From: Clostridia bacterium
GTDB taxonomy: Bacteria; Bacillota; Clostridia; Oscillospirales; CAG-272
NCBI GenBank assembly: GCA_017462605.1
Contig: JAFTQV010000057.1
Location: forward strand, 662 to 64,661
Direction: 5' to 3'
Length of the DNA: 64,000 nt
The notes under the pieces were generated by a model that worked only from the letters and a program-made list of their open reading frames with translations, was not told the DNA's origin and did not search any database. Positions 1,649 to 27,775 of the stretch are shown here, one piece after another. Position 1 is the first letter of the stretch; every line of letters starts with the position of its first letter. The translations under genes and the position numbers were made by a program.

Positions 1649-3625
1649 ATGAGAAATAAAGAGAGAGCCAATTTTAAGCTCGTCAGCGAATTTGCGCCAA
1701 CGGGCGATCAGCCCGAGGCCATCAGAGCCTTGGTTCAGGGCATCGAAGCGGGCGAAAGAGCGCAAACTCTCGTCGGTGTAACAGGCTCGGGCAAGACCTT
1801 CACTATGGCAAACGTTATCGCCGAGGTAGGCAGACCCGCTCTCGTCCTCGCGCATAATAAAACGCTTGCCGCTCAGCTTTGTACGGAGTTCCGCGAGTTC
1901 TTCCCCGAAAATGCGGTTGAGTATTTCGTCTCCTACTACGATTACTATCAACCCGAGGCATATATACCCGGAAAGGATATGTATATCGAGAAGGATGCGA
2001 TGATCAATGACGAGATAGATATGCTGCGCCATAGCGCAACGAGCGCTCTCTTCGAGAGAAGAGACGTTATCATCGTCGCCTCGGTCTCCTGCATTTATTC
2101 GCTCGGAGATCCTATGGAATACGAGAGCTTACTTGTTTCGGTAAGACCGGGAGCTTTTCTCTCGCGTGATGAGCTGATAGCAAAGCTCGTTTCGATCAGC
2201 TATGAAAGAAACGACGTCAATTTTATGAGAAATAAATTCAGAGTCAGAGGCGATACGGTAGAGATCTTTCCCGCAAACGCGAAGGAAGAGGCGATACGCG
2301 TTGAGTTCTTCGGCGATGAAATAGAAAGAGTCACCAAGATCAATACGGTGACGGGAGCGGTAAAGGAAGAGCTTTCCTACGCCGCGGTTTTCCCTGCGAC
2401 TCACTATGCCGTTTCAGATGAGAAAAGAGAAGCAGCTCTTCGTGAAATAGAAGCGGAGATGAGAGAAAGAGTTGAGTTCTTCAAGTCTCAGAATAAGCTT
2501 ATCGAGGCTCAGAGAATAGAGGAAAGAACCAAGTACGATATCGAAATGCTCAGAGAGGTCGGCTTCTGCTCGGGAGTTGAGAACTATTCAAGAGTCCTCT
2601 CGGGCAGACCAGAGGGCTCAACTCCCTATACGCTTCTCGATTATCTGCCCGATGATTACGTCCTCTTCGTTGATGAGTCTCACGTAACGCTGCCGCAGGT
2701 AAGAGGAATGAGCGGCGGAGACTTTGCGAGAAAAAAGAACCTCGTAGACTACGGCTTCCGCCTGCCGAGCGCATTTGACAACAGACCTCTTTTCTTCGAT
2801 GAATTTTTAGAAAGAATAGGTCAGGTGGTATTCGTCAGCGCAACTCCGTCCGAATATGAAAAGAGCGAAAGCTCAAGTATAGTCGAGCAGCTCATAAGAC
2901 CCACGGGCCTCGTTGACCCCGAGATAATCGTGCGCGAGATAGAAGGTCAGATAGACGATCTTATCGGCGAGATAAGAGGGGTGACGGCAAGAGGAGAAAA
3001 AACTCTCGTCACCACAATGACCACGAAGATGGCAGAGGATCTGACAGAGTATCTCTCCACTCACGGAATAAAGGTCAAGTATATACACCATAGAGTTGAG
3101 ACCATAGAAAGAATGCAGATCATAAGAGACTTGAGGCGCGGTGAATACGACGTTCTCGTCGGAATAAACCTTCTCCGAGAGGGACTTGATATCCCCGAGG
3201 TATCCCTCGTCGCGATACTTGATGCGGATAAAGAGGGCTTCCTTCGAAGCGAGACGTCACTTATACAGACCGTGGGCAGAGCCGCAAGAAACGTCAACGG
3301 CAGAGTCATCATGTATGCAGACAGTATAACGAGATCAATGAGAGCGGCGATAGACGAGACCGAAAGACGCCGCAGAATACAAATGGAGTATAACGAGAAA
3401 AACGGCATTACTCCGAGGAGCATAACCAAGAAGATAATGGACGTTATCGAGATCGGTAAGAAGGTCAAGGACGAAAACGGTAAGGAAAGAAAGCTTACCC
3501 GCCCCGAAAGAGAAAAGCTTATAGAGAAGCTGACTCAGGAAATGAAGGAAGCGGCAAGGCAGCTTGAATTCGAAAAGGCGGCGTATATCCGAGATAGAAT
3601 TAAGGATCTCAGAACAACGAAATAA
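1649..3625 (+). CDS. uvrB: excinuclease ABC subunit B
   Basis: 658 aa. Walker A GVTGSGKT, helicase motifs, C-terminal UVR motif ([16 protein letters not shown]). SD AAGGAGG lies upstream of the ATG. Confidence 0.97.
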
Positions 3626-3643
3626 ATAGAAAAGTGTAAGAAA

Positions 3644-6469
3644 ATGTCAAGAAATATAGTCATAAAAGGCGCAAAAGTTAATAATCTTAAAAATATTGAC
3701 GTTACTATACCGAGAGACAAGCTCGTCGTACTGACGGGGCTTTCGGGAAGCGGAAAGTCATCGCTCGCGTTTGACACTCTCTATGCCGAGGGGCATAGGC
3801 GCTTCGTTGAGAGCCTTTCAAGCTATGCGAGAATGTTTATAGGTCAGATGGATAAGCCCGAGGTAGATCTTATCGAGGGGCTTTCTCCCGCGATATCGAT
3901 AGATCAGAAGACAACCTCGAAGAACCCGAGATCCACGGTAGGAACGGTAACCGAGATATACGACTATCTCCGTCTGCTTTACGCAAGAGTAGGTCATCCG
4001 CACTGCCCGGTATGCGGTAAGGAGATCACTCAGCAGACGCAGGATCAGATAGTGGATAGAATATTATCGCTCCCCGAGGGGGAAAGAATAGCAGTGCTGT
4101 CTCCTGTTGTCAAAGCGGAGAAGGGAAGGCATGAAAAGGTATTTGAGGCGGCGAGAAAAAGCGGCTTCGCCCGTGTCCGCGTGGACGGAAATATGTACTC
4201 GCTCGACGAGGAGATAACGCTTGATAAAAATAAAAAGCATACAATAGATATAGTTGTAGATAGACTTGTCATCAAGCCCGATATAACCTCGCGCCTTTCG
4301 GATTCCGTTGAGAGCGCGCTTAAGGCATCGGGCGGTAAGGTTACCGTTGTGACAGTTCCCCGTGAGGGCGAGGGTAAAGAGCTTGAATTCTCGCAGAAGT
4401 ATATGTGCGAGGAGCATGGAATAAGCTTCCCGGAGCTTGAGCCGAGAATGTTCTCCTTCAATAACCCTATCGGCGCGTGCCCCGAATGCGCGGGCATTGG
4501 AAATATGCAGAGAATATCCGTCCGCAAGCTTATTCCTCATCCCGAGCTTTCACTCAGAGAAGGAGGCATAGCCGCAAACGGATTTAAGTCTATGACCGAG
4601 GATTCCTGGACGGGTCCCGTGCTTGCCGCGGTCGGCAAGGATTACGGCTTTGACCTTGATACTCCTCTTAAGGAGTATTCAGAGCGCGCCATGGACGTGC
4701 TTATGTACGGAACGAGAGACGGCAAGAAATACAACGTTATCCGCTATTTCGGCGGCGAAGGCAGAGAGCAGAACGCAACCTTTGACGGTATAGTCAATAT
4801 AATCGAAAGACGAATGAAGATGGCAGGCGGAGACTATTATCAGGAGTTCGTTGAAGAGGTCGCGTGCCCGAGATGCCGCGGAAGAAGGCTTTCAGATCTT
4901 GTTTTAGCGGTGACGGTAGGCGGACTCAATATAGATGAATTCTGCTCTATGACGGTCTCTCGCGCGCTTGATTTCGTGGAAAAAATAGAATTTACCGATT
5001 CCGAGGCAACGATAGCCAAGGAAGTCATAAAGGAAGTCAGATCGAGGCTCAACTTCTTGAAGAGTGTAGGACTTGATTATCTGAACCTCAGCCGTACTGC
5101 GGGAACTCTTTCGGGCGGCGAGGCGCAGAGAATAAGGCTTGCCACCCAGATCGGTTCATCGCTGACGGGAGTTCTTTATATCCTTGACGAGCCGAGCATA
5201 GGTCTTCACCAAAGAGATAACGGTAAGCTTATCGGTACTCTTAAAAATCTTCGTGATCTTGGCAACAGCGTGATAGTCGTTGAGCATGACGAGGAGACGA
5301 TGAGGGAGTCCGATTATATAGTGGATATCGGACCCGGAGCGGGTATTCACGGCGGTGAGGTGGTTGCCGTCGGCACACCCGATGAGGTCGCCGCATGCCA
5401 TAGATCGGTGACGGGAGATTATCTTTCGGGCAGAAGAGTTATTGAAGTGCCTAAGACGAGAAGACCCGGCAACGGCAAATTCCTTCGTATTATAGGCGCA
5501 GAGGAGAATAACCTTAAGAAAATTGACGTTGATATACCTCTCGGCTGCTTTATCGCCGTCACGGGAGTATCGGGCAGCGGTAAGTCATCGCTCGTCAACG
5601 CCGTTCTGTACAGAACCCTCGCCAGAGACCTCAACCGCGCGATAACGTATCCGGGTAAGGTCGAGCGCATAGAAGGGCTCTCGGAGCTTGATAAGGTCAT
5701 AGCGATAGATCAGAGCCCGATCGGAAGAACTCCGAGATCAAACCCGGCAACCTATACGGGACTCTTTACCGATATCAGAACTCTTTTCGCCAAAACCAAG
5801 GACGCCAAGGCGAAGGGCTACGAGGCAGGCAGATTTTCCTTCAATATCAAGGGCGGCAGATGCGAGGCTTGCGAGGGAGACGGAGTCAAATGCATTGAGA
5901 TGAACTTCCTGCCCGACGTTTACGTCAAGTGCGACGTGTGCCGCGGAAAGAGATACAACAGAGATACCCTTGAGGTCAAATACAAGGGAAAGAATATTTA
6001 TGACGTGCTTGAAATGTCGGTTGAAGAGGGCATAACCTTTTTTGACGGTATACCGCAGATACAAAGAAAGCTTCAGACACTCTTTGACGTCGGACTCGGC
6101 TATATAAAGATCGGTCAGTCCTCAACCACGCTTTCGGGTGGAGAGGCGCAGAGAGTCAAGCTTGCAACAGAGCTTTCAAAGCGCTCCACCGGCAAAACGG
6201 TGTATATTCTTGACGAGCCCACCACAGGACTTCATACCGAGGACGTCTCAAAGCTGATAGCAATACTTCAAAGACTTGCGGACGGCGGCAATACGGTAAT
6301 AGCGATAGAGCATAATCTTGATCTTATCAAGACGGCAGATCATATTATCGACCTCGGTCCTGAGGGCGGAGAGGGCGGCGGAACAGTCGTTGCCTCGGGA
6401 ACCCCAGAGCAGGTCGCAAAATGCGAAAGATCCTATACGGGAAAATTCCTTCGCGAAAAGCTAATATGA
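3644..6469 (+). CDS. uvrA: excinuclease ABC subunit A
   Basis: 941 aa. Two ABC ATPase modules (GLSGSGKSS and GVSGSGKSS, two LSGGE signatures), zinc-finger CxxC pairs. Confidence 0.97.
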   Translation: MSRNIVIKGAKVNNLKNIDVTIPRDKLVVLTGLSGSGKSSLAFDTLYAEGHRRFVESLSSYARMFIGQMDKPEVDLIEGLSPAISIDQKTTSKNPRSTVGTVTEIYDYLRLLYARVGHPHCPVCGKEITQQTQDQIVDRILSLPEGERIAVLSPVVKAEKGRHEKVFEAARKSGFARVRVDGNMYSLDEEITLDKNKKHTIDIVVDRLVIKPDITSRLSDSVESALKASGGKVTVVTVPREGEGKELEFSQKYMCEEHGISFPELEPRMFSFNNPIGACPECAGIGNMQRISVRKLIPHPELSLREGGIAANGFKSMTEDSWTGPVLAAVGKDYGFDLDTPLKEYSERAMDVLMYGTRDGKKYNVIRYFGGEGREQNATFDGIVNIIERRMKMAGGDYYQEFVEEVACPRCRGRRLSDLVLAVTVGGLNIDEFCSMTVSRALDFVEKIEFTDSEATIAKEVIKEVRSRLNFLKSVGLDYLNLSRTAGTLSGGEAQRIRLATQIGSSLTGVLYILDEPSIGLHQRDNGKLIGTLKNLRDLGNSVIVVEHDEETMRESDYIVDIGPGAGIHGGEVVAVGTPDEVAACHRSVTGDYLSGRRVIEVPKTRRPGNGKFLRIIGAEENNLKKIDVDIPLGCFIAVTGVSGSGKSSLVNAVLYRTLARDLNRAITYPGKVERIEGLSELDKVIAIDQSPIGRTPRSNPATYTGLFTDIRTLFAKTKDAKAKGYEAGRFSFNIKGGRCEACEGDGVKCIEMNFLPDVYVKCDVCRGKRYNRDTLEVKYKGKNIYDVLEMSVEEGITFFDGIPQIQRKLQTLFDVGLGYIKIGQSSTTLSGGEAQRVKLATELSKRSTGKTVYILDEPTTGLHTEDVSKLIAILQRLADGGNTVIAIEHNLDLIKTADHIIDLGPEGGEGGGTVVASGTPEQVAKCERSYTGKFLREKLI

Positions 6470-19717: not shown

Positions 19718-20731
19718 ATGAAATCGGTTAAGGAGCGCGAATGGTTTTTTTCACAGGAAAAGGAGCCTGTTAAGGTTGCAAATCCAATTCCTGAGTATAA
19801 TATATACAGACTTAAAACAACGGGTCAGACGATATGCGATATAGAGATAGCTTCGGGGCTCGGCAAAGCACCCGTCACCATAGGCGCTACGGCAGATCTT
19901 CATTTCAATTTCTGCAATATGAAGGACAGAGAGGATGAGGAGCTTCAGTATACCGAGCAGTGTAGGCTGTGGCTTCAGTATCAGAAATCCCTGGTGAGCG
20001 CAGTAAAAGCGCTTGAAGCTGCTGATTTTTGCGATGCATCCATTATCTGCGGCGATATTCTTGATTATCTTTCCGAGGGAGCGATCGATCTCACCAAAAG
20101 GCATATTATTAAAAAATATCCCGAGATAATGATGGCACTCGGCGGTCATGATTATACAAAGCAGATGCAGACCAAGCGCCCCGATAAGCTTCCTCTGGAG
20201 CAAAGGCTTGATATGCTCAGGAGCTTCTGGCCTCACGATATACATTATTATTCAAGGCGTATAGGCGATTCGGTCCTCGCCGTGATCATGGACAACAGTC
20301 AGGGAAAATATCTCCCGGGTCAGGCAGAGAAGCTTAAAGCTGATATGGATATAGCGAGAGAAGAGGGAAGGGTAATTCTCATATTTCAGCATGAGCCGAT
20401 AAGCCTCTTTGATCCGAAGATCAATACTGTTCCCGCGGTTGTAGAAAACGGCGGCGCGGCTAAGATAGCTAATTTTGGTACTATGCAAGAGCTTATAGGC
20501 AATAGCGAGTCGGATGAATCCACTTCGCTTGTGCTTGATCTCATAAAATGCGGCGCTGACGTTATTAAAGGTATAGTAGCAGGGCATTGGCACAGCCAGT
20601 TCTTCGGATATATCAAAGCTGGATACAGCGGCGGCAATGGCGATGTGATCCCTTGCGATATTCCGCAGTATATCATATCGGGAAATCCGTATTTTGAGTC
20701 GGGATTTGTCGCAAGAATAACCGTCAAATAA
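19718..20731 (+). CDS. metallophosphoesterase (calcineurin-like)
   Basis: 337 aa. Ordered MPP motifs DLH, GDILD, GGHD, HEP, GHWH. Confidence 0.8.
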   Translation: MKSVKEREWFFSQEKEPVKVANPIPEYNIYRLKTTGQTICDIEIASGLGKAPVTIGATADLHFNFCNMKDREDEELQYTEQCRLWLQYQKSLVSAVKALEAADFCDASIICGDILDYLSEGAIDLTKRHIIKKYPEIMMALGGHDYTKQMQTKRPDKLPLEQRLDMLRSFWPHDIHYYSRRIGDSVLAVIMDNSQGKYLPGQAEKLKADMDIAREEGRVILIFQHEPISLFDPKINTVPAVVENGGAAKIANFGTMQELIGNSESDESTSLVLDLIKCGADVIKGIVAGHWHSQFFGYIKAGYSGGNGDVIPCDIPQYIISGNPYFESGFVARITVK

Positions 20732-20748
20732 ATAGTTAAGGAGATCTT

Positions 20749-21501
20749 ATGGAGCTTGTTTGGCTGACCGCGCTCGGTGTTGGCGGCGCAACGGTTTTTG
20801 GCGCAGTTATAGGCTTTCTCTTCAAAAATATTTCGCATAGATTCAGTGATATCGTTCTTGCATTTTCGGCGGGAATAATGCTTGCGGCAGCGGTGCTTGG
20901 ACTTATTGTTCCTTCTCTTGAATATGGTGGAAAATTCGCTATATTGATAACAATTGTTGGCATTTTTACGGGTGCGATATGCATGAAGCTTGTTGATATA
21001 CTTGTGCCTCACCTTCACAAAATTGCGGATAATGACATCGAAAACCACGAGCATAACAAGAGCTTGGATAAGGTCCTTCTCTTCGTTATCGCAATAGCTA
21101 TACACAATCTTCCCGAGGGTATATCCGCAGGAGTCGGCTTCGGAACGGGGAATGACTCGGAGGCGATTCTTATCGCTCTCGGTATCGCGCTTCAGAATAT
21201 ACCCGAGGGCATGGTGATTATTTCACCGATGCTTGCTACCGGCATGAAGCCTTGGAAGACCTTCGTCATCGCAGCTCTGACGGGTGTGATAGAGGTAGTC
21301 GGAACTCTTATCGGTTATCTTGCCGTCAGCGTTGCATCCTTCATTCTGCCATTCGCATTAAGCTTTGCGGGAGGAACGATGCTATACGTTATCAGCGACG
21401 AGATGATTCCCGAAACGCATTCTCACGGCTCGGAAAGCGGAGCGACCTTCGCTCTTCTTATTGGTTTTTGCGTGATGCTCGTTTTTGATTTTTTACTTTA
21501 A
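20749..21501 (+). CDS. zupT: ZIP family zinc/metal transporter
   Basis: 250 aa, 8 TM, HNLPEGISAG and LQNIPEGM signature pair. Confidence 0.85.
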   Translation: MELVWLTALGVGGATVFGAVIGFLFKNISHRFSDIVLAFSAGIMLAAAVLGLIVPSLEYGGKFAILITIVGIFTGAICMKLVDILVPHLHKIADNDIENHEHNKSLDKVLLFVIAIAIHNLPEGISAGVGFGTGNDSEAILIALGIALQNIPEGMVIISPMLATGMKPWKTFVIAALTGVIEVVGTLIGYLAVSVASFILPFALSFAGGTMLYVISDEMIPETHSHGSESGATFALLIGFCVMLVFDFLL

Positions 21502-21513
21502 TTTGATAACTTG

Positions 21514-21722
21514 GCGGCAGAAATGCATTTATGCGTCTGCGGCGGGGGAAGCATAGGAATTTATAGAGCTTTGCAGACAGCCTTCCTATGTGCAGCCTTG
21601 TACACAACTGTTAAGAACCACCAATTGCATTGGAGGTTCTAAACAGGTGTTTAAGCCTTTTTCTGCCGCTTCGTTTTAAGAGGCTGTTTCAAATGTATTT
21701 GCATTTGCGCAGCCTCTTTTTT
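21514..21722 (+). ncRNA. candidate structured RNA immediately upstream of the reverse transcriptase (RT-associated ncRNA or cis-regulatory leader)
   Basis: 10/10-bp closing helix 21514-21523/21660-21669. Internal hairpins 21552-59/21583-90 and 21614-25/21629-40. Terminator-like hairpin 21678-86/21710-18 plus T6 abutting the RT SD. Boundaries and transcription are not verified. Confidence 0.45.
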
Positions 21723-21731
21723 GGAGGATTT

Positions 21732-22952
21732 ATGAGTATTCTTGATAAAATATCCGATAAAAATTGCTGGTTGGATTTTCTCGAATATAAAAGAAGCTCG
21801 GGGCATTTTTTTGAGTCTGAAGAAAAAGATCTTGCGGAATATATAGATAATGAAGATTATCTTCCCGTGGCTGAGGCTATTGCTTTGGAAAAGCCCTTTC
21901 CCTTACCTTTACTTCGGGAGATTAATAAAAAAGGAACGGATAAGAAGCGCAGGGTATTTGTTTTTCCCAGGAGAGAGAACTACATTTTAAAGCTGATAGC
22001 ATATCTTTTACATAGCTATGATGCGCTCTTTGCTCCGAATCTCTATTCCTTCAGGCGCGGAATAGGAGTAAAGCAAGCTGTGTATCATATTGTATCCCGC
22101 CCGGGCATAGAGTCTGCTTATACGTATAAGGTCGATATCAGCGACTATTTCAATTCGGTGGATACCGAGGCTGTTATAAGCGTACTCGAAGAATCGATTT
22201 GTGACGATAAGCGTCTTGTCAGCTTTATTTCGGGAATACTCAGAGAACCGCGCGCAAGGTTTGAAGGGGGTATAGTTGAGGTCAGAAAGGGAATAATGGC
22301 GGGCGTGCCATTTTCGGGATTTCTCGCGAATTTATTTCTTAAGGATCTCGATGAATATTTTTTTGGGAATAACATTCTTTACGCAAGGTATTCGGATGAT
22401 ATCATAGTCTTTTCAAGAAGTAAGGAGCAAATATCGGAGTGCGAGCGAAAAATAAAAGAAACGCTTGAAGCCAAAATGCTGAAGGTAAACGAAAAGAAAG
22501 AATTTAGGACAAGCCCCGGTGAAAAATGGGAATTTCTCGGCTTTTCGGTAAGCGGAAAGGAAATAGATATCTCCGAGGTCTCCTTTGAGAAGATAAAAGC
22601 AAAGATGCGGAGAAAGGCAAGGTCGCTTCTCAGGTGGAAGGAAAGAAAAGCCGCCTCAGACAAGGGAGCGGTGAAAACCTTTATCAGGCATTTTAACCGC
22701 AAAATGTATGATAATCCGAGCCTGCATGACGTAACGTGGGCGCTATGGTATTTTCCTGTTATCAACACTTCAAAAACGCTGAAGGCGATAGATGAATATG
22801 CTGTCTCGAGCGCGAGATTTATCGCATCGGGCAACCATTCGAAGAAGTCTTATTCACTTCGCTATGATACCCTTAAGGAGTGGGGATATAGAAATCTCGT
22901 CAACTCGTTTTATAAATTCAAAGAAGGGAAGCCTCTCTTCGATGATGAGTGA
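21732..22952 (+). CDS. free-standing reverse transcriptase, group-II-intron-like (RT plus thumb/maturase-like region, no endonuclease domain)
   Basis: Start set to ATG 21732 (MSILDK) behind GGAGGA 21723-28. RT blocks: KKRRVFVFPRRENYILKLIAYLL (RT1/2), SFRRGIGVKQAV, VDISDYFNSVD (RT3), GVPFSGFLANLFLKDLD (RT4), YARYSDDIIVF (RT5, YxDD), LKVNEKKE (RT6), WEFLGFSV (RT7), then a ~130-aa X/thumb-like tail. Confidence 0.9.
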   Translation: MSILDKISDKNCWLDFLEYKRSSGHFFESEEKDLAEYIDNEDYLPVAEAIALEKPFPLPLLREINKKGTDKKRRVFVFPRRENYILKLIAYLLHSYDALFAPNLYSFRRGIGVKQAVYHIVSRPGIESAYTYKVDISDYFNSVDTEAVISVLEESICDDKRLVSFISGILREPRARFEGGIVEVRKGIMAGVPFSGFLANLFLKDLDEYFFGNNILYARYSDDIIVFSRSKEQISECERKIKETLEAKMLKVNEKKEFRTSPGEKWEFLGFSVSGKEIDISEVSFEKIKAKMRRKARSLLRWKERKAASDKGAVKTFIRHFNRKMYDNPSLHDVTWALWYFPVINTSKTLKAIDEYAVSSARFIASGNHSKKSYSLRYDTLKEWGYRNLVNSFYKFKEGKPLFDDE

Positions 22953-23121
22953 ACGACCTTTTTAGTCGTTAAAGCCTTGGATTTTAGTGCAAAATTACAA
23001 TATTTGAGCCTCTTTTTTTGGAAGGTTTACATAATTTTTTGCTTAATGTTATCTTTGTTCAAAATGTAGAAAAAATAACTTGAATTTTGTTAATATCTAA
23101 CAAGAGACAGCATAAATATCA

Positions 23122-23197
23122 AAAATCGCGATTTTGGGATAGTTCGGGTAAATTATATTTACCGATAGGTTAAACAATCCCTGAAAATCGCGATTTT
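23122..23197. promoter_or_regulatory. pair of identical 14-bp perfect palindromes (putative operator pair)
   Basis: AAAATCGCGATTTT at 23122-23135 and again at 23184-23197, 62 bp apart. A GGTAAAT/ATTTACC hairpin lies between them. Confidence 0.4.
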
Positions 23198-23350
23198 TAA
23201 TGATAAAATGTTGAATTTAATTTACTTTCGTCTTTTTTAACAAAAAATAGGAAATCAATTTTTTTGCCTAAAAATTGAAAAACAGAAAAAAACGCGCGCT
23301 TTGGCAAAAGGTAATTGAAAAGGGTACCCTTTTGGCGGCAAATTCCTTTC

Positions 23351-23379
23351 TTGACTTTTCTTTTATATTATGTTATAAT
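23351..23379 (+). promoter_or_regulatory. sigma-A-type promoter of the carbohydrate ABC locus
   Basis: TTGACT 23351-23356, 17-nt spacer, extended -10 TGtTATAAT (TATAAT 23374-23379). Confidence 0.6.
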
Positions 23380-23446
23380 TTTTTTATCAATATGCCCGAA
23401 TTATGTTTACGCGGGTAATAATGAATTATTTGGAGGAAAAGAATTC

Positions 23447-26400
23447 ATGAAGAAGCCATTGTTTCAGAGAGTGATGTGTTTCATTCTTTCTGTTGCAACC
23501 TTGCTTGGTGCGGGTGGATTCACGGTAGCTGCGGGCGATCTTAAGCCTGATACTACCGCGGCAACGCTGGATGAAATGAAAGCCGTTGTCGGAACGACCA
23601 CCTACGCCGAGTACATCGCAGGCTACAAGGATGCTAAGCCCGGCAAGGGTGTTATCCAGCTTAGCAACGATCGAGTCAGCGGTGCCGTTAAGGTAACGGA
23701 GAGTGAGCAATGCAAGGATGCCAACATCACCGAAAGAGAAGACTACGATTTTGAAAATCATCAGAACGCAGTTTATCTTTCCGCTACCAGTAAAGCGACC
23801 TGGACGTTCGACGTTGCGGACGATGAGATCGGTCTTTACTACATCAAGGTCGTGTACTATAACTGCGATACAAGAGACAGCAGTATCAGTACCATTCAGC
23901 GTAAGCTCTACCTTGACGATAAGATCCCCTTCTCCGAGGCGGGAAGCCTTCAGTTCCAGAAGTATTGGGTAACCAATAATGCTGAAACCGTTGTCACCGA
24001 TACAGATGAAGAGGATAAGGTGTTCGATCCGAGATACGAGACGAGAGCTGACGGATACTACAAGGTATACAGCTACGTCAAGGACGGAAAGAAGTACGAG
24101 ACGACCTATAAGATATCTCAGGATATCAACGGCAACTCGATGGCGCCCGAGCTTGTTCAAAGCTCCGCTTGGCATACATATTACTGCCAGGACTCCACGG
24201 GCTATGAGCACGGATACTTCATGTTCCACATACTCAACGGTAATTCTCACACTCTTACTCTCGAGGCAGAGAGAGAGGATATGATAGTTGAGTCTATCGA
24301 GCTTATTCCCGTTGATACCTCCGTTGTTGATATTCCTTCTTATGAGGATGTCAAGGCAGAGTACGAGGCAAACGGATATAAGCCTGCTGAGGGCGGAAAT
24401 ATCTACGTTATCGAGGCAGAGTTCCCCGATGCGGTATCCGATTCTTCGGTATACGCTACCAACGATAATACCTCTGCTGCAAACTTCCCCTCTACCTCTA
24501 AGGCTCAGCTTTACAACGTAATAGGTGAGAATAGCTATAATACGGTAGGTCAGTGGGCGGCATATAAATTCCGCGTTTCCAAGGACGGACTTTACAACAT
24601 TTCGATGAGATATAAGCAGAGCGCCCTTCAGGGTATGTACGTCTGCCGAGCCGTTAAGCTTTCGGGCGGTAAGTACGGTCTTTCGGACGGAACTCCCACA
24701 GCTCCCTTCCAGGAGGCATACAACGCGCGCTTTGATTATAATAAGGAATGGCAGTCAAACTATCTTTCGGACGGAAGCGGAGAAGCTTTCCAGTTCTATT
24801 TTGAAGAGGGCGTTGAATATACGATCTATCTTGAATGCTCGCTCGGATCGCTAAAGGAGCTTATCCAGCGGGTCGAGGTTTCGCTTGACAAGATCAACGA
24901 GTGCTACCTTAAGATACTTCAGCTCACAGGTAACGATCCCGATGAATACCGTGACTATAAGTTCGATGAGATCATGCCCGACGTTCTTTACGAGTTCCTC
25001 GTCCAGGCGGAGAACCTTGAAAATGTCAAGAATGAGTTCGTTGAGCTTTGCGGAACAACAGGATCTCACGTCACTACTCTTCACACGATAGCGCTCCTTC
25101 TCGATAGAATGGGCTCGAATTACGGTGATGACGTTGCGGCTAATATGAGTACTCTTAAGTCCTACCTCGGTACGCTCGGTACGTGGATCAACAATTCCAA
25201 GACGAGCCCCATGGTGGTGGACAGCCTTACTGTTGCTCCTTCGGACAGCGGAAAAGCAGGTCTCAAGAGAGCGACACCCAACTTCTTCGTTTCGATAGGC
25301 TTTGAGATCGCATCCTTCTTCTGGTCATTCTTCACCGAGTACGATCAGATGGGTCTTACAAGAGTTCCCGATGCTGATTCCAAGAAGATTGACGTATGGC
25401 TTGCTACCGGTCGTGACCAGTCTCAGATCTGGCGCGGACTTATAGACGCTAAGGATGGATTTACAGATAGAACGGGCGTTGCGGTAACGCTTAAGCTCGT
25501 CACGGGAGGAACACTTCTTCCCTCAGTCCTTTCGGGTAAAGGTCCCGACGTATATATGGGACTTGGCTCAACGGACGTTATTAACTACGCGATAAGAGAT
25601 GCCGTTTATGCTGTAAGCGGCAATGAAAAGAGCTTCACAGAAGAGCAGAACAAGATTTTTTCTTCCAATTATTATACATATATTGAGGACGGCAAGTACG
25701 TCACCTCAACTGTCGCTCCCGAAAACTATACGGGAAGCGGAACCTACGTAGAAAACAGTAAGACTCTTACATTCGAGGAGGTTCTCGGAGCAGAGGACGA
25801 TCCCAACTACGTAAAGGCTGCGCTTGATACCCTTCAGCTTCAGGGAATGACCTTCGGTATTCCTCAGACGATGTCGTTTGCGATGATGTTCTACAGAATG
25901 GACGTTCTCGCAGAGCTTGGTCAGGAGGTTCCCGAGTCATGGGGCGAGCTTCTTGCGCTCCTTCCCGTTCTCCAGACCAACAATATGTCGATAGGTGTCA
26001 ACTACATTTCCGCGATCGACTTCATGATTTATCAGAAGGGCGGTAATATGTGGAAGTATCCTGACGATCCCGATTATCAGGGCGCAAAGATCGACCTTGA
26101 TTCGGACGTTGCGCTTGAGGCGTTCGACTACGTCTGCAGACTTTACAGCGACTACTCCTTCCCCGTAAGCTACGATGCGGCAAACCGTTTCAGAACCGGT
26201 GAGATGCCTATCATCATAGGCGACTACGCATCTATCTATAACCAGCTCGTCGTTTATGCGACTGAGATCGCAGGTCTTTGGGAGTTTACTTCGCTCCCCG
26301 GCTCGTTCAGAGAGGACGGAAGCTTCAACTACAACTCTCTTGCAGGTATCGGCGCAACCGTAATGCTTAACGGATGCAAGGATATCCTCAGCTCATGGCA

Positions 26401-26785
26401 GTTTATGCAGTGGGAGACCTCGGCAGACATTCAGGCTGCATACGGTAATAAGATGGTTGCCCTTATCGGACCTTCCGCTAAGTACGAATCGGCTAACGTA
26501 AAGGCGCTTCGCGACCTTTCCTGGACTGCAAGCGAGAAGCTTGCTATCGAGGAGCAGATGGAATGCCTTTATTCGATCGTAAACTATCCCGGCTCTTACA
26601 TCATCAACAGATACACCAAGTTTGCATTCCTTGCGGCTGTAAACGACGGTGCGGATGCTGTTGACGCTCTTACAGGTTATATCGACGATATCAATACCGA
26701 GATATACAGAAAGAGGCAGGAGTTCGGTATGAAGGTTCTTGAGCCCGGTGAAGAGCCCGGCGACGTTGCCGGCGGCGACACCTGA
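23447..26785 (+). CDS. extracellular solute-binding protein (family 1 sugar SBP) fused to two N-terminal CBM-like beta-sandwich modules
   Basis: Start moved to ATG 23447 (MKKPLFQ..., signal/anchor) behind GGAGGA; the 23315 start lies inside the promoter. The C-terminal ~480 aa look like a sugar SBP (KIDVWLATGRDQSQIW..., GPDVYMG). Two CBM6/35-like segments in the N-terminal half. Confidence 0.75.
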   Translation: MKKPLFQRVMCFILSVATLLGAGGFTVAAGDLKPDTTAATLDEMKAVVGTTTYAEYIAGYKDAKPGKGVIQLSNDRVSGAVKVTESEQCKDANITEREDYDFENHQNAVYLSATSKATWTFDVADDEIGLYYIKVVYYNCDTRDSSISTIQRKLYLDDKIPFSEAGSLQFQKYWVTNNAETVVTDTDEEDKVFDPRYETRADGYYKVYSYVKDGKKYETTYKISQDINGNSMAPELVQSSAWHTYYCQDSTGYEHGYFMFHILNGNSHTLTLEAEREDMIVESIELIPVDTSVVDIPSYEDVKAEYEANGYKPAEGGNIYVIEAEFPDAVSDSSVYATNDNTSAANFPSTSKAQLYNVIGENSYNTVGQWAAYKFRVSKDGLYNISMRYKQSALQGMYVCRAVKLSGGKYGLSDGTPTAPFQEAYNARFDYNKEWQSNYLSDGSGEAFQFYFEEGVEYTIYLECSLGSLKELIQRVEVSLDKINECYLKILQLTGNDPDEYRDYKFDEIMPDVLYEFLVQAENLENVKNEFVELCGTTGSHVTTLHTIALLLDRMGSNYGDDVAANMSTLKSYLGTLGTWINNSKTSPMVVDSLTVAPSDSGKAGLKRATPNFFVSIGFEIASFFWSFFTEYDQMGLTRVPDADSKKIDVWLATGRDQSQIWRGLIDAKDGFTDRTGVAVTLKLVTGGTLLPSVLSGKGPDVYMGLGSTDVINYAIRDAVYAVSGNEKSFTEEQNKIFSSNYYTYIEDGKYVTSTVAPENYTGSGTYVENSKTLTFEEVLGAEDDPNYVKAALDTLQLQGMTFGIPQTMSFAMMFYRMDVLAELGQEVPESWGELLALLPVLQTNNMSIGVNYISAIDFMIYQKGGNMWKYPDDPDYQGAKIDLDSDVALEAFDYVCRLYSDYSFPVSYDAANRFRTGEMPIIIGDYASIYNQLVVYATEIAGLWEFTSLPGSFREDGSFNYNSLAGIGATVMLNGCKDILSSWQFMQWETSADIQAAYGNKMVALIGPSAKYESANVKALRDLSWTASEKLAIEEQMECLYSIVNYPGSYIINRYTKFAFLAAVNDGADAVDALTGYIDDINTEIYRKRQEFGMKVLEPGEEPGDVAGGDT

Positions 26786-26818
26786 GAATCGTACAATACG
26801 AGATAAGGAGAAATTTAA

Positions 26819-27775
26819 ATGGCACAGAATAACAATGCAGAGATAAGCCGTCCTGTAAAACGTTCTGAAGTGTCGAAGATAAGATGGACCTGGGAGGAAA
26901 TGAAGAACAATAAGACAGCATACTTCATGCTGGCTCCCTTCTTCCTTCTGTTCATCATATTCACGATCTTACCTGTCGTGCTTTCGATGCTGCTCAGCTT
27001 TACGGACTTCAATATGCTTCAGATGCCTCCTCACTGGATGGGAATGTCCAACTTCACCCGTCTTTTCTTAGGAGACGATATATTCCTTCTTGCTTGTCAG
27101 AACACGCTTATATTCGCGGCGGTAACAGGTCCCGTTTCGTACCTGCTTTCGCTTCTTATTGCGTGGTTCATCAACGAGCTTCCCCCCAAGATCCGCGCGG
27201 TAGTAACTCTTATATTCTACGCGCCCTCGATCTCAGGTCAGGTATACCTTATTTGGAAGACCCTCTTCTCGTCCGACTCTTACGGATGGGTTAACGCAAC
27301 GATGATCGACCTTGGCGTCATCTCGGAGCCGATCCTTTGGTTTGAAAACGCAGACTACGTTATGCCTCTTTGTATAGTAGTTGCGCTCTGGACCTCGCTC
27401 GGTACCGCATTCCTTTCGTTCATTGCGGGCTTCCAGACGATCGACCGCTCGATGTACGAGGCAGCCGCGGTTGACGGAATCAAGAACCGCTGGCAGGAGC
27501 TTTGGTATATCACGCTTCCCACGATGCGTCCTCAGCTTATGTTCGGTGCGGTCCTCGCAATTACAAACTCGTTCGGCTTCGGAGCCGTTGTTGACGCGCT
27601 TTGCGGATTCCCCTCGGTTGATTACGCAGCGCACACGATAATGCACCATCTTAACGACTACGGCGGACAGCGTTATGAAATAGGTTATGCATCTGCGATA
27701 GCGGTATTGCTCTTCATCATAATGTTCTCGTCTAACGTCATCATCAAGAAGGCGCTTTCAAAGGTAGGTGAGTAG
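26819..27775 (+). CDS. carbohydrate ABC transporter permease (MalF/LplB-like)
   Basis: 318 aa, 6 TM, EAA-type loop (YEAAAVDGIKNRWQELWYITLP). Confidence 0.9.
   Translation: MAQNNNAEISRPVKRSEVSKIRWTWEEMKNNKTAYFMLAPFFLLFIIFTILPVVLSMLLSFTDFNMLQMPPHWMGMSNFTRLFLGDDIFLLACQNTLIFAAVTGPVSYLLSLLIAWFINELPPKIRAVVTLIFYAPSISGQVYLIWKTLFSSDSYGWVNATMIDLGVISEPILWFENADYVMPLCIVVALWTSLGTAFLSFIAGFQTIDRSMYEAAAVDGIKNRWQELWYITLPTMRPQLMFGAVLAITNSFGFGAVVDALCGFPSVDYAAHTIMHHLNDYGGQRYEIGYASAIAVLLFIIMFSSNVIIKKALSKVGE

Follow-up and report, generated by a model that had tools for sequence, protein, structure and literature searches.

An RT-5 family RNA as the probable cis-encoded partner of a UG26 reverse transcriptase in a Clostridia bacterium

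The Class 2 reverse transcriptases (RTs) of the UG/Abi type that have been studied depend on a structured RNA encoded in cis and reuse a short internal template; this template is framed by two stems, and the ends of the RNA pair with each other as a basal stem (PMC12632851; PMC12483538; 10.64898/2026.06.29.735271). The products of Class 2 UG RTs have been unexpected, ranging from a synthetic gene (DRT2) and poly-dA (DRT9) to telomere-like repeats (DRT10) and short hairpins (UG27). In Mestre et al. 2022 the Class 2 UG/Abi group UG26 counts 35 members, and no noncoding RNA (ncRNA) is described for it (PMC9226505). RT-5 is one of nineteen 'RT' motifs published in 2017, for which no function beyond a guess at retrons was offered (PMC5737381). 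Here we describe a stretch of 64,000 nt from a Clostridia bacterium (the window; assembly GCA_017462605.1, contig JAFTQV010000057.1) in which a structured RNA element of about 210 nt lies between zupT and an RT gene, and we show that the RNA belongs to RT-5 and the RT to UG26. This ties UG26 to a defined RNA, the Rfam family RT-5, which has been without an assigned function since 2017.

The RT matches the PADLOC profile RT_UG26 with 532 bits (E = 1.3e-160), residues 1-398 aligning with positions 1-397 of the 398 in the profile. The runner-up among the specific groups is UG27, at 107 bits (E = 3e-31), and the further groups, among them UG17/DRT10 (E = 2e-30), UG4 and UG28/DRT9 (E = 1e-24), lie at about 1e-25 to 1e-31. 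RVT_1 is the only Pfam domain of the protein, and its AlphaFold2 model (pLDDT 91) is a single compact RT. Among solved structures the nearest folds are those of group II intron RTs (TMq 0.70-0.77), followed by DRT9 (0.61-0.64), which is the nearest of the defence RTs with solved structures; DRT2 and the retron RTs (0.42-0.48) lie further away. The RT has more than 3000 homologues, and the protein of the window is identical to one from a Clostridia metagenome-assembled genome (MAG).

A scan of positions 20500-27500 against Rfam (E ≤ 10), as suggested in a preliminary description of the element, returned one meaningful match, RF03026 or 'RT-5 RNA', at 21531-21662 on the + strand. This match scores 52.7 bits against a curated gathering score of 45.7 (E = 2.5e-8) and spans the full model (positions 1-104 of 104), the second hairpin being enlarged by 30 inserted nt; its end lies 70 nt from the start codon of the RT gene on the same strand, adjoining an RT gene as the definition of the family has it. 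No retron RNA, riboswitch or aptamer, or intron RNA family matched in that interval at that threshold. The preliminary description had concluded that ordinary features do not explain this RNA, a statement that falls away because the RNA belongs to a catalogued family. The element nevertheless differs from RF03026. Outside the match lie the closing helix P1, the 5′ half of the small hairpin P2 and, in the lineage of the window, a separate terminator hairpin; inside it lie the strands of a pseudoknot and two tertiary pairs, which the structure line of the model leaves unpaired. The Rfam consensus structure either lacks the positions of P1 or shows them without partners. Our own covariance model (R1), in which the outer helix and the 5′ hairpin were added to RT-5, matches 21506-21677 with 99 bits and nothing else within the 64-kb window. 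The closing helix, 5′ hairpin, pseudoknot and tertiary pairs are new with respect to the Rfam model.

A scan of species-representative genomes gave 450 relatives of the RT, from which 80 loci were retained (42-61% identity), mostly from rumen and gut Clostridia. With the Rfam model, RT-5 was found directly upstream of the RT on the same strand in 40 of 40 loci tested, and our own covariance model located exactly one element ahead of the RT gene in 78 of 81 sources. For two of the three negative sources the stored locus does not reach upstream of the RT, so that 78 of the 79 loci with upstream DNA are positive. The third, from a Solobacterium sp. MAG (L071, RT at 3001-4200, 44% identical), gave no RT-5-like RNA even with filters off and may contain a diverged RNA or a degenerate system. 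In the reverse test, metagenomes were scanned for a sequence pattern derived from the RNA; 80 loci were returned, 47 of which matched the model, and all 41 of the model-matching loci with at least 200 nt of downstream sequence encode a UG26-like RT (33-47% identical) that starts 5-110 nt past the RNA on the same strand. The RNA is found with UG26 RTs and, within the samples examined, nowhere else, and the UG26/RT-5 family is essentially absent from viral contigs. A likeness to the ncRNAs of DRT-type RTs, which the preliminary description had suggested, is borne out both by the class of the RT and by this co-occurrence in two directions.

The comparison with close relatives points the same way. 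In genomes whose ZupT is 82-83% identical (L082, 5757-6384; L083; L084) the flanking genes are the same, and neither the RNA nor the RT is present. The order there is metallophosphoesterase gene, zupT, an unrelated AT-rich spacer of 550-630 nt that replaces 21502-23347, and a large gene; homology to the window ends near 21456-21498 and restarts at 23348. Given that these relatives lack both, the RNA and the RT are one accessory unit that is gained or lost together.

The fold was assessed in a model-guided alignment of 74 distinct homologous elements, and as this alignment is fitted to the model, counts made in it lean towards the structure. Standard pairs fill 93.2% of the cells, compared with 72.0% in shuffles, and the covariation score is 0.628, compared with 0.224 in shuffles (0 of 500 reach it) and 0.09-0.12 in controls with the partners shifted by 1-3 columns. 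These shifted controls, together with the large number of transversion-type double changes, argue that the covariation signal is real despite the fitted alignment. P1 comprises 11 pairs, each paired in 94-98% of the sequences, with double changes in 10, whereas the three pairs of P2 are paired in 99.5% and all show double changes; the P2 of one locus (L037) holds a nested insert hairpin. The six pairs of the pseudoknot are paired in 99.8%, five of them with double changes (GC/AU, CG/UA), and P3 contributes 16 pairs (13 + 3), 13 with double changes. Two tertiary pairs surfaced in a mutual-information scan, G21541-C21593 (columns 59-133; GC 56, AU 7, CG 7, UA 3, other 1) and A21550-U21572 (columns 69-109; AU 65, GC 8), and the J3/4 junction holds two invariant positions (column 141, G in 73/73; column 146, U in 72/72). 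In P4, double changes occur in all five consensus pairs, which are paired in 87%, and its length is highly variable across loci, from ~16 nt to more than 100 nt, although mostly short.

Pairing and covariation above the shuffles thus indicate that P1, the pseudoknot and the CATAGGAA hairpin are real and conserved, as the preliminary description had proposed by eye when it called for a test of covariation; the pseudoknot, there only a possibility, is confirmed by covariation, and the CATAGGAA/TTCCTATG hairpin is the conserved and covarying P3b. A 12-bp hairpin at 21614-21640, which had been listed beside them, is present in this sequence but is not a trait of the family: it is a lineage-specific insertion in the loop of P4, absent from most homologues, a few of which carry other, larger inserts. 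The elements at L066 (2803-2984), L073 (2763-2984), L067 (2806-2986) and L063 (296-477) reach 180-220 nt through large P4 insertions, and those of L067 and L063, both Bacteroidaceae MAGs, are the lowest-scoring ones.

Direct reading of the window finds every helix sequence given in the preliminary description where it had been placed. P1 is formed there by GCGGCAGAAA (21514-21523) and TTTCTGCCGC (21660-21669), which pair at 10 of 10 positions, together with G21513-U21670, and CATAGGAA (21552-21559) pairs with TTCCTATG (21583-21590). The minimum free energy (MFE) fold of 21500-21735 on the + strand contains P1, the CATAGGAA hairpin, the 12-bp hairpin and the terminator, and its energy of -84.2 kcal/mol compares with -63.1 ± 4.5 in dinucleotide shuffles (z -4.7, 0 of 200 as good), consistent with the structured RNA of about 210 nt that had been predicted. 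The z-score of the - strand is lower still (-6.7), as is expected of such a score in a helix-rich region. We nevertheless rejected the - strand as the functional one, because an invariant G-U pair (74/74) and many further G-U pairs are possible on the + strand alone. The coordinates of the individual parts are collected in Table 1.

Table 1. Parts of the RT-5 RNA element and of the adjoining RT gene in the window
Feature	Position	Strand	Remarks
Whole RNA element	21513-21722	+	RT-5-type ncRNA core 21513-21670, then linker, then terminator
P1, 5′ arm GGCGGCAGAAA	21513-21523	+	Partner 21660-21670; 11 consensus pairs, read from sequence
P2, small 5′ hairpin	21525-21534	+	Pairs 21525-27/21532-34, GCA/UGC, loop UUUA
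Pseudoknot	GUCUGC 21535-21540 with GCAGAC 21573-21578	+	3′ strand within apical loop of P3
G21541	21541	+	Lone long-range Watson-Crick pair with C21593 of P3 internal loop
P3, three-part long hairpin	21542-21600	+	Matches paired core of RF03026
P3b and P3c	21551-59/21583-91; 21568-70/21579-81	+	Sub-helices of P3
A21550-U21572 tertiary pair	P3	+	Found by mutual-information scan
J3/4 junction GUAC	21600-21603	+	Invariant G and U
P4 hairpin	21604-21650	+	Base 21604-12/21642-50; proposed template-boundary stem
12-bp hairpin AGAACCACCAAT/ATTGGAGGTTCT	21614-25/21629-40	+	Lineage-specific insert, tip of P4
J4/1 loop UUAAGCCUU	21651-21659	+	Sole sizeable unpaired multiloop stretch; candidate template
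P1, 3′ arm UUUCUGCCGCU	21660-21670	+	First two U's nearly invariant
Terminator-like hairpin AAGAGGCTG/CAGCCTCTT	21678-21722	+	Arms 21678-86/21710-18, then U6
Ribosome-binding site (RBS) of RT gene, GGAGGA	21723-21728	+	Read from sequence; ATG at 21732
UG26 RT gene	21732-22952	+	406 aa, YSDD active site

Together these data suggest that the element is the cis-encoded ncRNA partner of the UG26 RT, a member of RT-5 that forms with the RT one accessory, probably antiviral module, and we put the probability of this reading at roughly 0.8. The locus shares several features with DRT10 (UG17) and DRT9 (UG28), including a Class 2 UG RT without an extra domain; a cis-encoded structured RNA of ~135-170 nt whose 5′ end pairs with its 3′ end and so closes it (PMC12632851; PMC12483538; 10.64898/2026.06.29.735271); a short single-stranded loop near the 3′ end, between a stem-loop and the closing stem; a U-rich tract at this loop; and an effector gene nearby, optional or obligatory. 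In contrast to both, the RT falls in a separate group, as the profile E values given above indicate, and the effector of UG26 is, when present, a Vsr-like nuclease rather than a SLATT protein. RT-5 also differs from DRT10 in being pseudoknotted, as far as a term search of the DRT10 structure paper goes, which met no mention of a pseudoknot (10.64898/2026.06.29.735271). New with respect to the literature consulted are the exclusive link between RT-5 and UG26 in both directions, the gain or loss of RNA and RT as a unit, the layout of terminator and promoter, and a candidate template. We suggest annotating this region of the genome as 'RT-5 RNA / UG26 RT module', rather than as riboswitch, retron or group II intron remnant. 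With a fuller structural model, probable transcript ends and one candidate template, the UG26 system becomes directly testable.

The RNA is probably both the scaffold and the template of the RT, which would bind the folded RNA and copy a short internal template repeatedly, like DRT9, DRT10, DRT3a and DRT2. The J4/1 loop is 10 nt long in 54 of 64 distinct loci (9 nt in the window), and its consensus, kUU(A/U)AAnnnY, combines an invariant A and near-invariant U's with three free positions; a run of 2-7 U's at the junction of J4/1 and P1 and the UU at the start of the loop are conserved in position. In 72/74 sequences the two innermost pairs of P1 are A-U (U at columns 319 and 320), whereas the other nine vary freely, which would be explained by a sequence-specific role such as the realignment of nascent DNA. 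On the basis of the architecture of Class 2 DRTs (10.64898/2026.06.29.735271), its fixed length, its conserved bases and these inner A-U pairs, we infer that J4/1 is the position of the template, with P4 as a putative 5′ boundary stem and P1 as a putative 3′ anchor; the UU at the start of the loop and the invariant UU that opens the 3′ arm of P1 would be the realignment sites. Copying in this manner would yield a ~9-10 nt tandem repeat, in the window roughly AAGGCTTAA, or else a polymer rich in A. Priming might perhaps occur from the aromatic C-terminal tail of the RT itself, where a motif, LVN-x-[YF][YF]-x-[FY]-KK, is conserved among 27 homologues with Y378 invariant and Y394 a tyrosine in 24/27. 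The effector would be a Vsr/YcjD-like nuclease in roughly half of the loci; the system in the window lacks it.

Several observations weigh against this scheme or parts of it. RNA binding, cDNA (complementary DNA) synthesis and defence by UG26 and RT-5 are steps that we infer, and a literature search (UG26, RT-5 motif, RF03026, DRT11-13, COG2852) found no functional study. Mestre et al. 2022 rated the defence-island signal of UG26 as inconclusive (PMC9226505), and the window is not a defence island. The fold of the RT is nearer to group II intron RTs than to DRT9, and the candidate C-terminal primer tyrosine is not universal, one of the 27 homologues having no tyrosine in the motif. The U's proposed for realignment are drawn as paired in P1. 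Repeats of the A-B-A′ type found in DRT10 (≥3 nt) occur in 78% of J4/1 loops compared with 75% of composition-matched shuffles, nothing beyond composition, and the idea was retained just as a positionally conserved UU...UU. A scan found no dedicated promoter for the RNA in the window, where the best site found by hand overlaps P1. Lastly, UG27, the closest characterised relative by score in hidden Markov model (HMM) comparison, makes a short cDNA from an entire hairpin (10.64898/2026.09.22.753630), and in roughly half of the loci the 5′ arm of P4 tends to recur in the 3′ half of J4/1, which would also fit copying through P4.

The link of DRT10 to telomerase (PMC12632851) prompted a comparison of RT-5 with the core of telomerase RNA. 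Both combine, in one closed domain, a helix that encloses it, a pseudoknot, and a short single-stranded segment whose 5′ limit could be set by an adjacent stem. However, the parts come in a different order, and with J4/1 as a proposed template only, this is a resemblance and nothing firmer. Tentatively, and with the odds somewhat against it, UG26 and RT-5 may be a distinct system of RNA-templated DNA synthesis, in which a pseudoknotted RNA held shut by its outer helix would offer a fixed 10-nt loop, limited by a stem, as a reusable template for a short tandem repeat or an A/T-rich product that would act alone or activate the Vsr-like nuclease. Since the parts list is that of the telomerase RNA core, the pair would then stand beside DRT10 as the second model from bacteria of how telomerase-like addition of repeats arose.

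The last two points against J4/1 as a reusable template would also fit an RT that, like that of UG27, copies a whole hairpin, most plausibly P4, into one short hairpin-forming single-stranded DNA per round, starting in the conserved J4/1 and halting at the conserved GUA of J3/4. In HMM score UG27 comes directly behind UG26, as the second-best PADLOC model for the RT, and its RNA units, of ~135-167 nt, likewise have a basal helix, a main hairpin and a pseudoknot; its cDNAs of 50-100 nt derive from the central hairpin and are bounded by short conserved motifs (10.64898/2026.09.22.753630). P4 is the sole hairpin of RT-5 that varies in sequence and length, it is bracketed by conserved nucleotides, and the tendency of the 3′ half of J4/1 to repeat its 5′ arm is stronger in cognate than in non-cognate combinations (-0.80 versus +0.28 kcal/mol, p < 0.0002). 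We nevertheless regard such copying as unlikely. UG27 consists of arrays of diverse RNA units with two accessory proteins and is borne by gut phages, whereas UG26 loci are chromosomal and contain a single, sequence-conserved unit and neither protein, and the family is all but missing from viral contigs. The motifs that bound the UG27 cDNAs (AUC...UANAG, UUYA) differ from those in RT-5, and P4, at only ~16 nt in most loci, would make a very short product.

The transcript that would supply such a partner RNA has a recurrent layout. A terminator-like end, either a separate hairpin or P1 followed by a U run, is found after the RNA in 65 of 74 distinct loci, usually a few to some tens of nucleotides ahead of the RT start. 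In 49/74 the 3′ arm of P1 runs directly into the U tract, and in most the RT starts 9-40 nt further on, which leaves no space for the RT to have its own promoter; in 21 loci a distinct GC-rich hairpin and a run of U's come next. The terminator is therefore a family trait in function and not in sequence. In the window, the terminator abutting the RBS of the RT, as the preliminary description had it, is real in shape (stem of -19.4 kcal/mol, then TTTTTT). Loci that have no upstream partner gene carry strong sigma-70-like promoters ending 4-12 nt before P1 (TTGACA-17-TATAAT in L078), so that transcription would start at P1 there. In the window, P1 begins 12 nt past the zupT stop codon, an arrangement shared with the syntenic relative L002, and the RNA is probably made as the tail of the zupT transcript. 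The alternative raised earlier, that the region is only the 3′ untranslated region (UTR) of zupT, is thus half right: with no well-placed promoter, the RNA is in transcriptional terms probably that UTR, but it is still the partner RNA of the RT. Most transcripts would end at the 21722 terminator to give the free ncRNA, and a minority would read through into the RT mRNA and be translated, so that the RNA would exceed the enzyme.

Two minor observations concern terminators. In L003, L004, L006-L009, L011 and L014, a separate terminator hairpin 30-60 nt past P1 keeps its sequence (GGGURCGGGC...GYCCGURCCC), as does the UUGAUUAUA linker before it, at an RT identity of only ~50-60%, and in this subgroup the hairpin may be a fifth functional stem and not just a terminator. 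A terminator-like hairpin with a weak T tail at 21436-21455, inside the 3′ end of the zupT coding sequence, is probably due to chance.

The position of the RNA in the 5′ leader of the RT gene also admits a purely regulatory role, in which the fold would sense a ligand or the RT itself and control read-through of the terminator at 21678-21722, with no part as a template. The preliminary description had compared the element to a riboswitch expression platform and pointed to an antiterminator-like pairing between AGGCUG of the terminator and a second CAGCCU at 21593-98. In the window this pairing is strong (-13.1 kcal/mol). Across the 15 loci with strong separate terminators, however, the 5′ arm of the terminator and the 3′ strand of P3a pair barely better in cognate than in non-cognate combinations (-8.5 versus -7.6 kcal/mol, permutation p 0.037), the pairing competes with a covarying helix, and it is irrelevant to the 49/74 loci that have no separate hairpin to switch. 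We rejected the antiterminator as a conserved feature, and the riboswitch reading fares no better, given those 49 loci and the lack of a match to any riboswitch or aptamer family. Moreover, the RNA accompanies UG26 RTs only, unlike metabolite riboswitches, and loci with their own promoter give a free-standing RNA that starts at P1 and ends right past it. A leader without a template role is for these reasons improbable, although feedback of RT binding on termination could coexist with the RNA being the partner of the RT.

It is very improbable that P1 represents the a1/a2 repeats of a retron, from which a branching G would prime multicopy single-stranded DNA joined covalently to the RNA. The order of RNA and then RT is that of retrons, inverted repeats surround a structured insert, which had led the preliminary description to the same comparison, and Weinberg et al. 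2017 speculated that many of the RT motifs act in retrons (PMC5737381). The RT, however, is clearly UG26 and scores 73 bits with the NCBIfam retron St85 model (cut-off 235) and 76 bits with the best PADLOC retron-type model, retron RTs are more distant from it by fold than DRT9 is, the retron RNA families were among those without a match, and RT-5 has no long, sequence-variable msd-like stem, its P3 being conserved in sequence and pseudoknotted. A group II intron was rejected as well, as only the protein fold is similar: no intron RNA matched in 20500-27500, and with the group II RT/maturase model the RT scores 106 bits (cut-off 300). We give hardly any credence to a DRT2-like mode, in which rolling-circle synthesis would turn most of the RNA into concatemers encoding a repetitive 'neo' protein. 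In its favour, DRT2 likewise belongs to Class 2 and combines a lone RT with a pseudoknotted RNA that lies upstream (PMC12039810; PMC11100668), and P1 joins the RNA's two ends. However, the stretch inside P1 is unbiased in length modulo 3 (25, 23 and 26 of 74 for remainders 0, 1 and 2), a stop-free circular frame on either strand exists in only 22/74 sequences, most having stops in all six, the enclosed region is ~100 nt of conserved structure, and the Drt2 models are far under their cut-offs (65 versus 390 bits), as is that of Drt3.

ORF (open reading frame) clustering revealed a recurrent neighbour of the module, a gene on the same strand that ends just before the RNA in 43 of 81 loci and in 24 of the 37 RNA-first loci. 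Its C-terminal domain matches PADLOC 'RTasCOG2852' (Vsr/YcjD-like nuclease), and its N-terminal parts vary, with zinc ribbons in some; in Mestre et al. 2022, 9 of the 35 UG26 members had a COG2852 (YcjD/Vsr-like) neighbour (PMC9226505). In L004 (109-2793; also L003 and L006) the partner is ~890 aa long, with TPR repeats and a TIR domain (Pfam TIR_2, E = 1.5e-10) between a zinc ribbon at the N terminus and the nuclease-like C terminus, an effector architecture that is not mentioned for UG26 in that survey (PMC9226505). The fusion to TIR and TPR domains points to defence. In the window the ORF upstream of the RNA is ZupT in place of the partner, and a tblastn search of the window with nine queries (eight versions of the partner and a SAP/DUF6434 ORF) gave nothing below E 0.09. 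The last query comes from a Ruminiclostridium-like subgroup (L027, L044, L048, L054 and L064) in which a 217-aa ORF with SAP_new25 and DUF6434 domains lies between RNA and RT, in a gap of ~650 nt, and in which the RNA has its own strong promoter.

The large gene downstream of the RT was considered as an effector and rejected, since both it and zupT are syntenic in relatives without the RT, which makes it ordinary context. This 1156-aa ORF is listed from TTG 23315 (23315-26785), but its start is most likely ATG 23448, which is preceded by GGAGGA and by a near-consensus promoter (TTGACT-17-TATAAT, 23351-23379); its homologues, at the same place in relatives, have 1220-1233 aa. It has no Pfam domain and a weak GanS-like solute-binding match, and ABC permease genes come next. 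A direct repeat of ~22 nt brackets the RT ORF, its copies AGCCTCTTTTTTGGAGGATTTA (21711-21732) and AGCCTCTTTTTTTGGAAGGTTTA (23007-23029) differing by one indel and two mismatches. The first copy is the 3′ arm of the terminator with the RBS, and the second, without a matching 5′ arm, is not a hairpin; the repeat may be the scar of the RT gene joining the RNA, or of a duplication. Upstream of the promoter of the large gene, a 14-nt palindrome, AAAATCGCGATTTT, occurs in two perfect copies 62 nt apart (23122-23135 and 23184-23197), which look like operator sites for a dimeric regulator.

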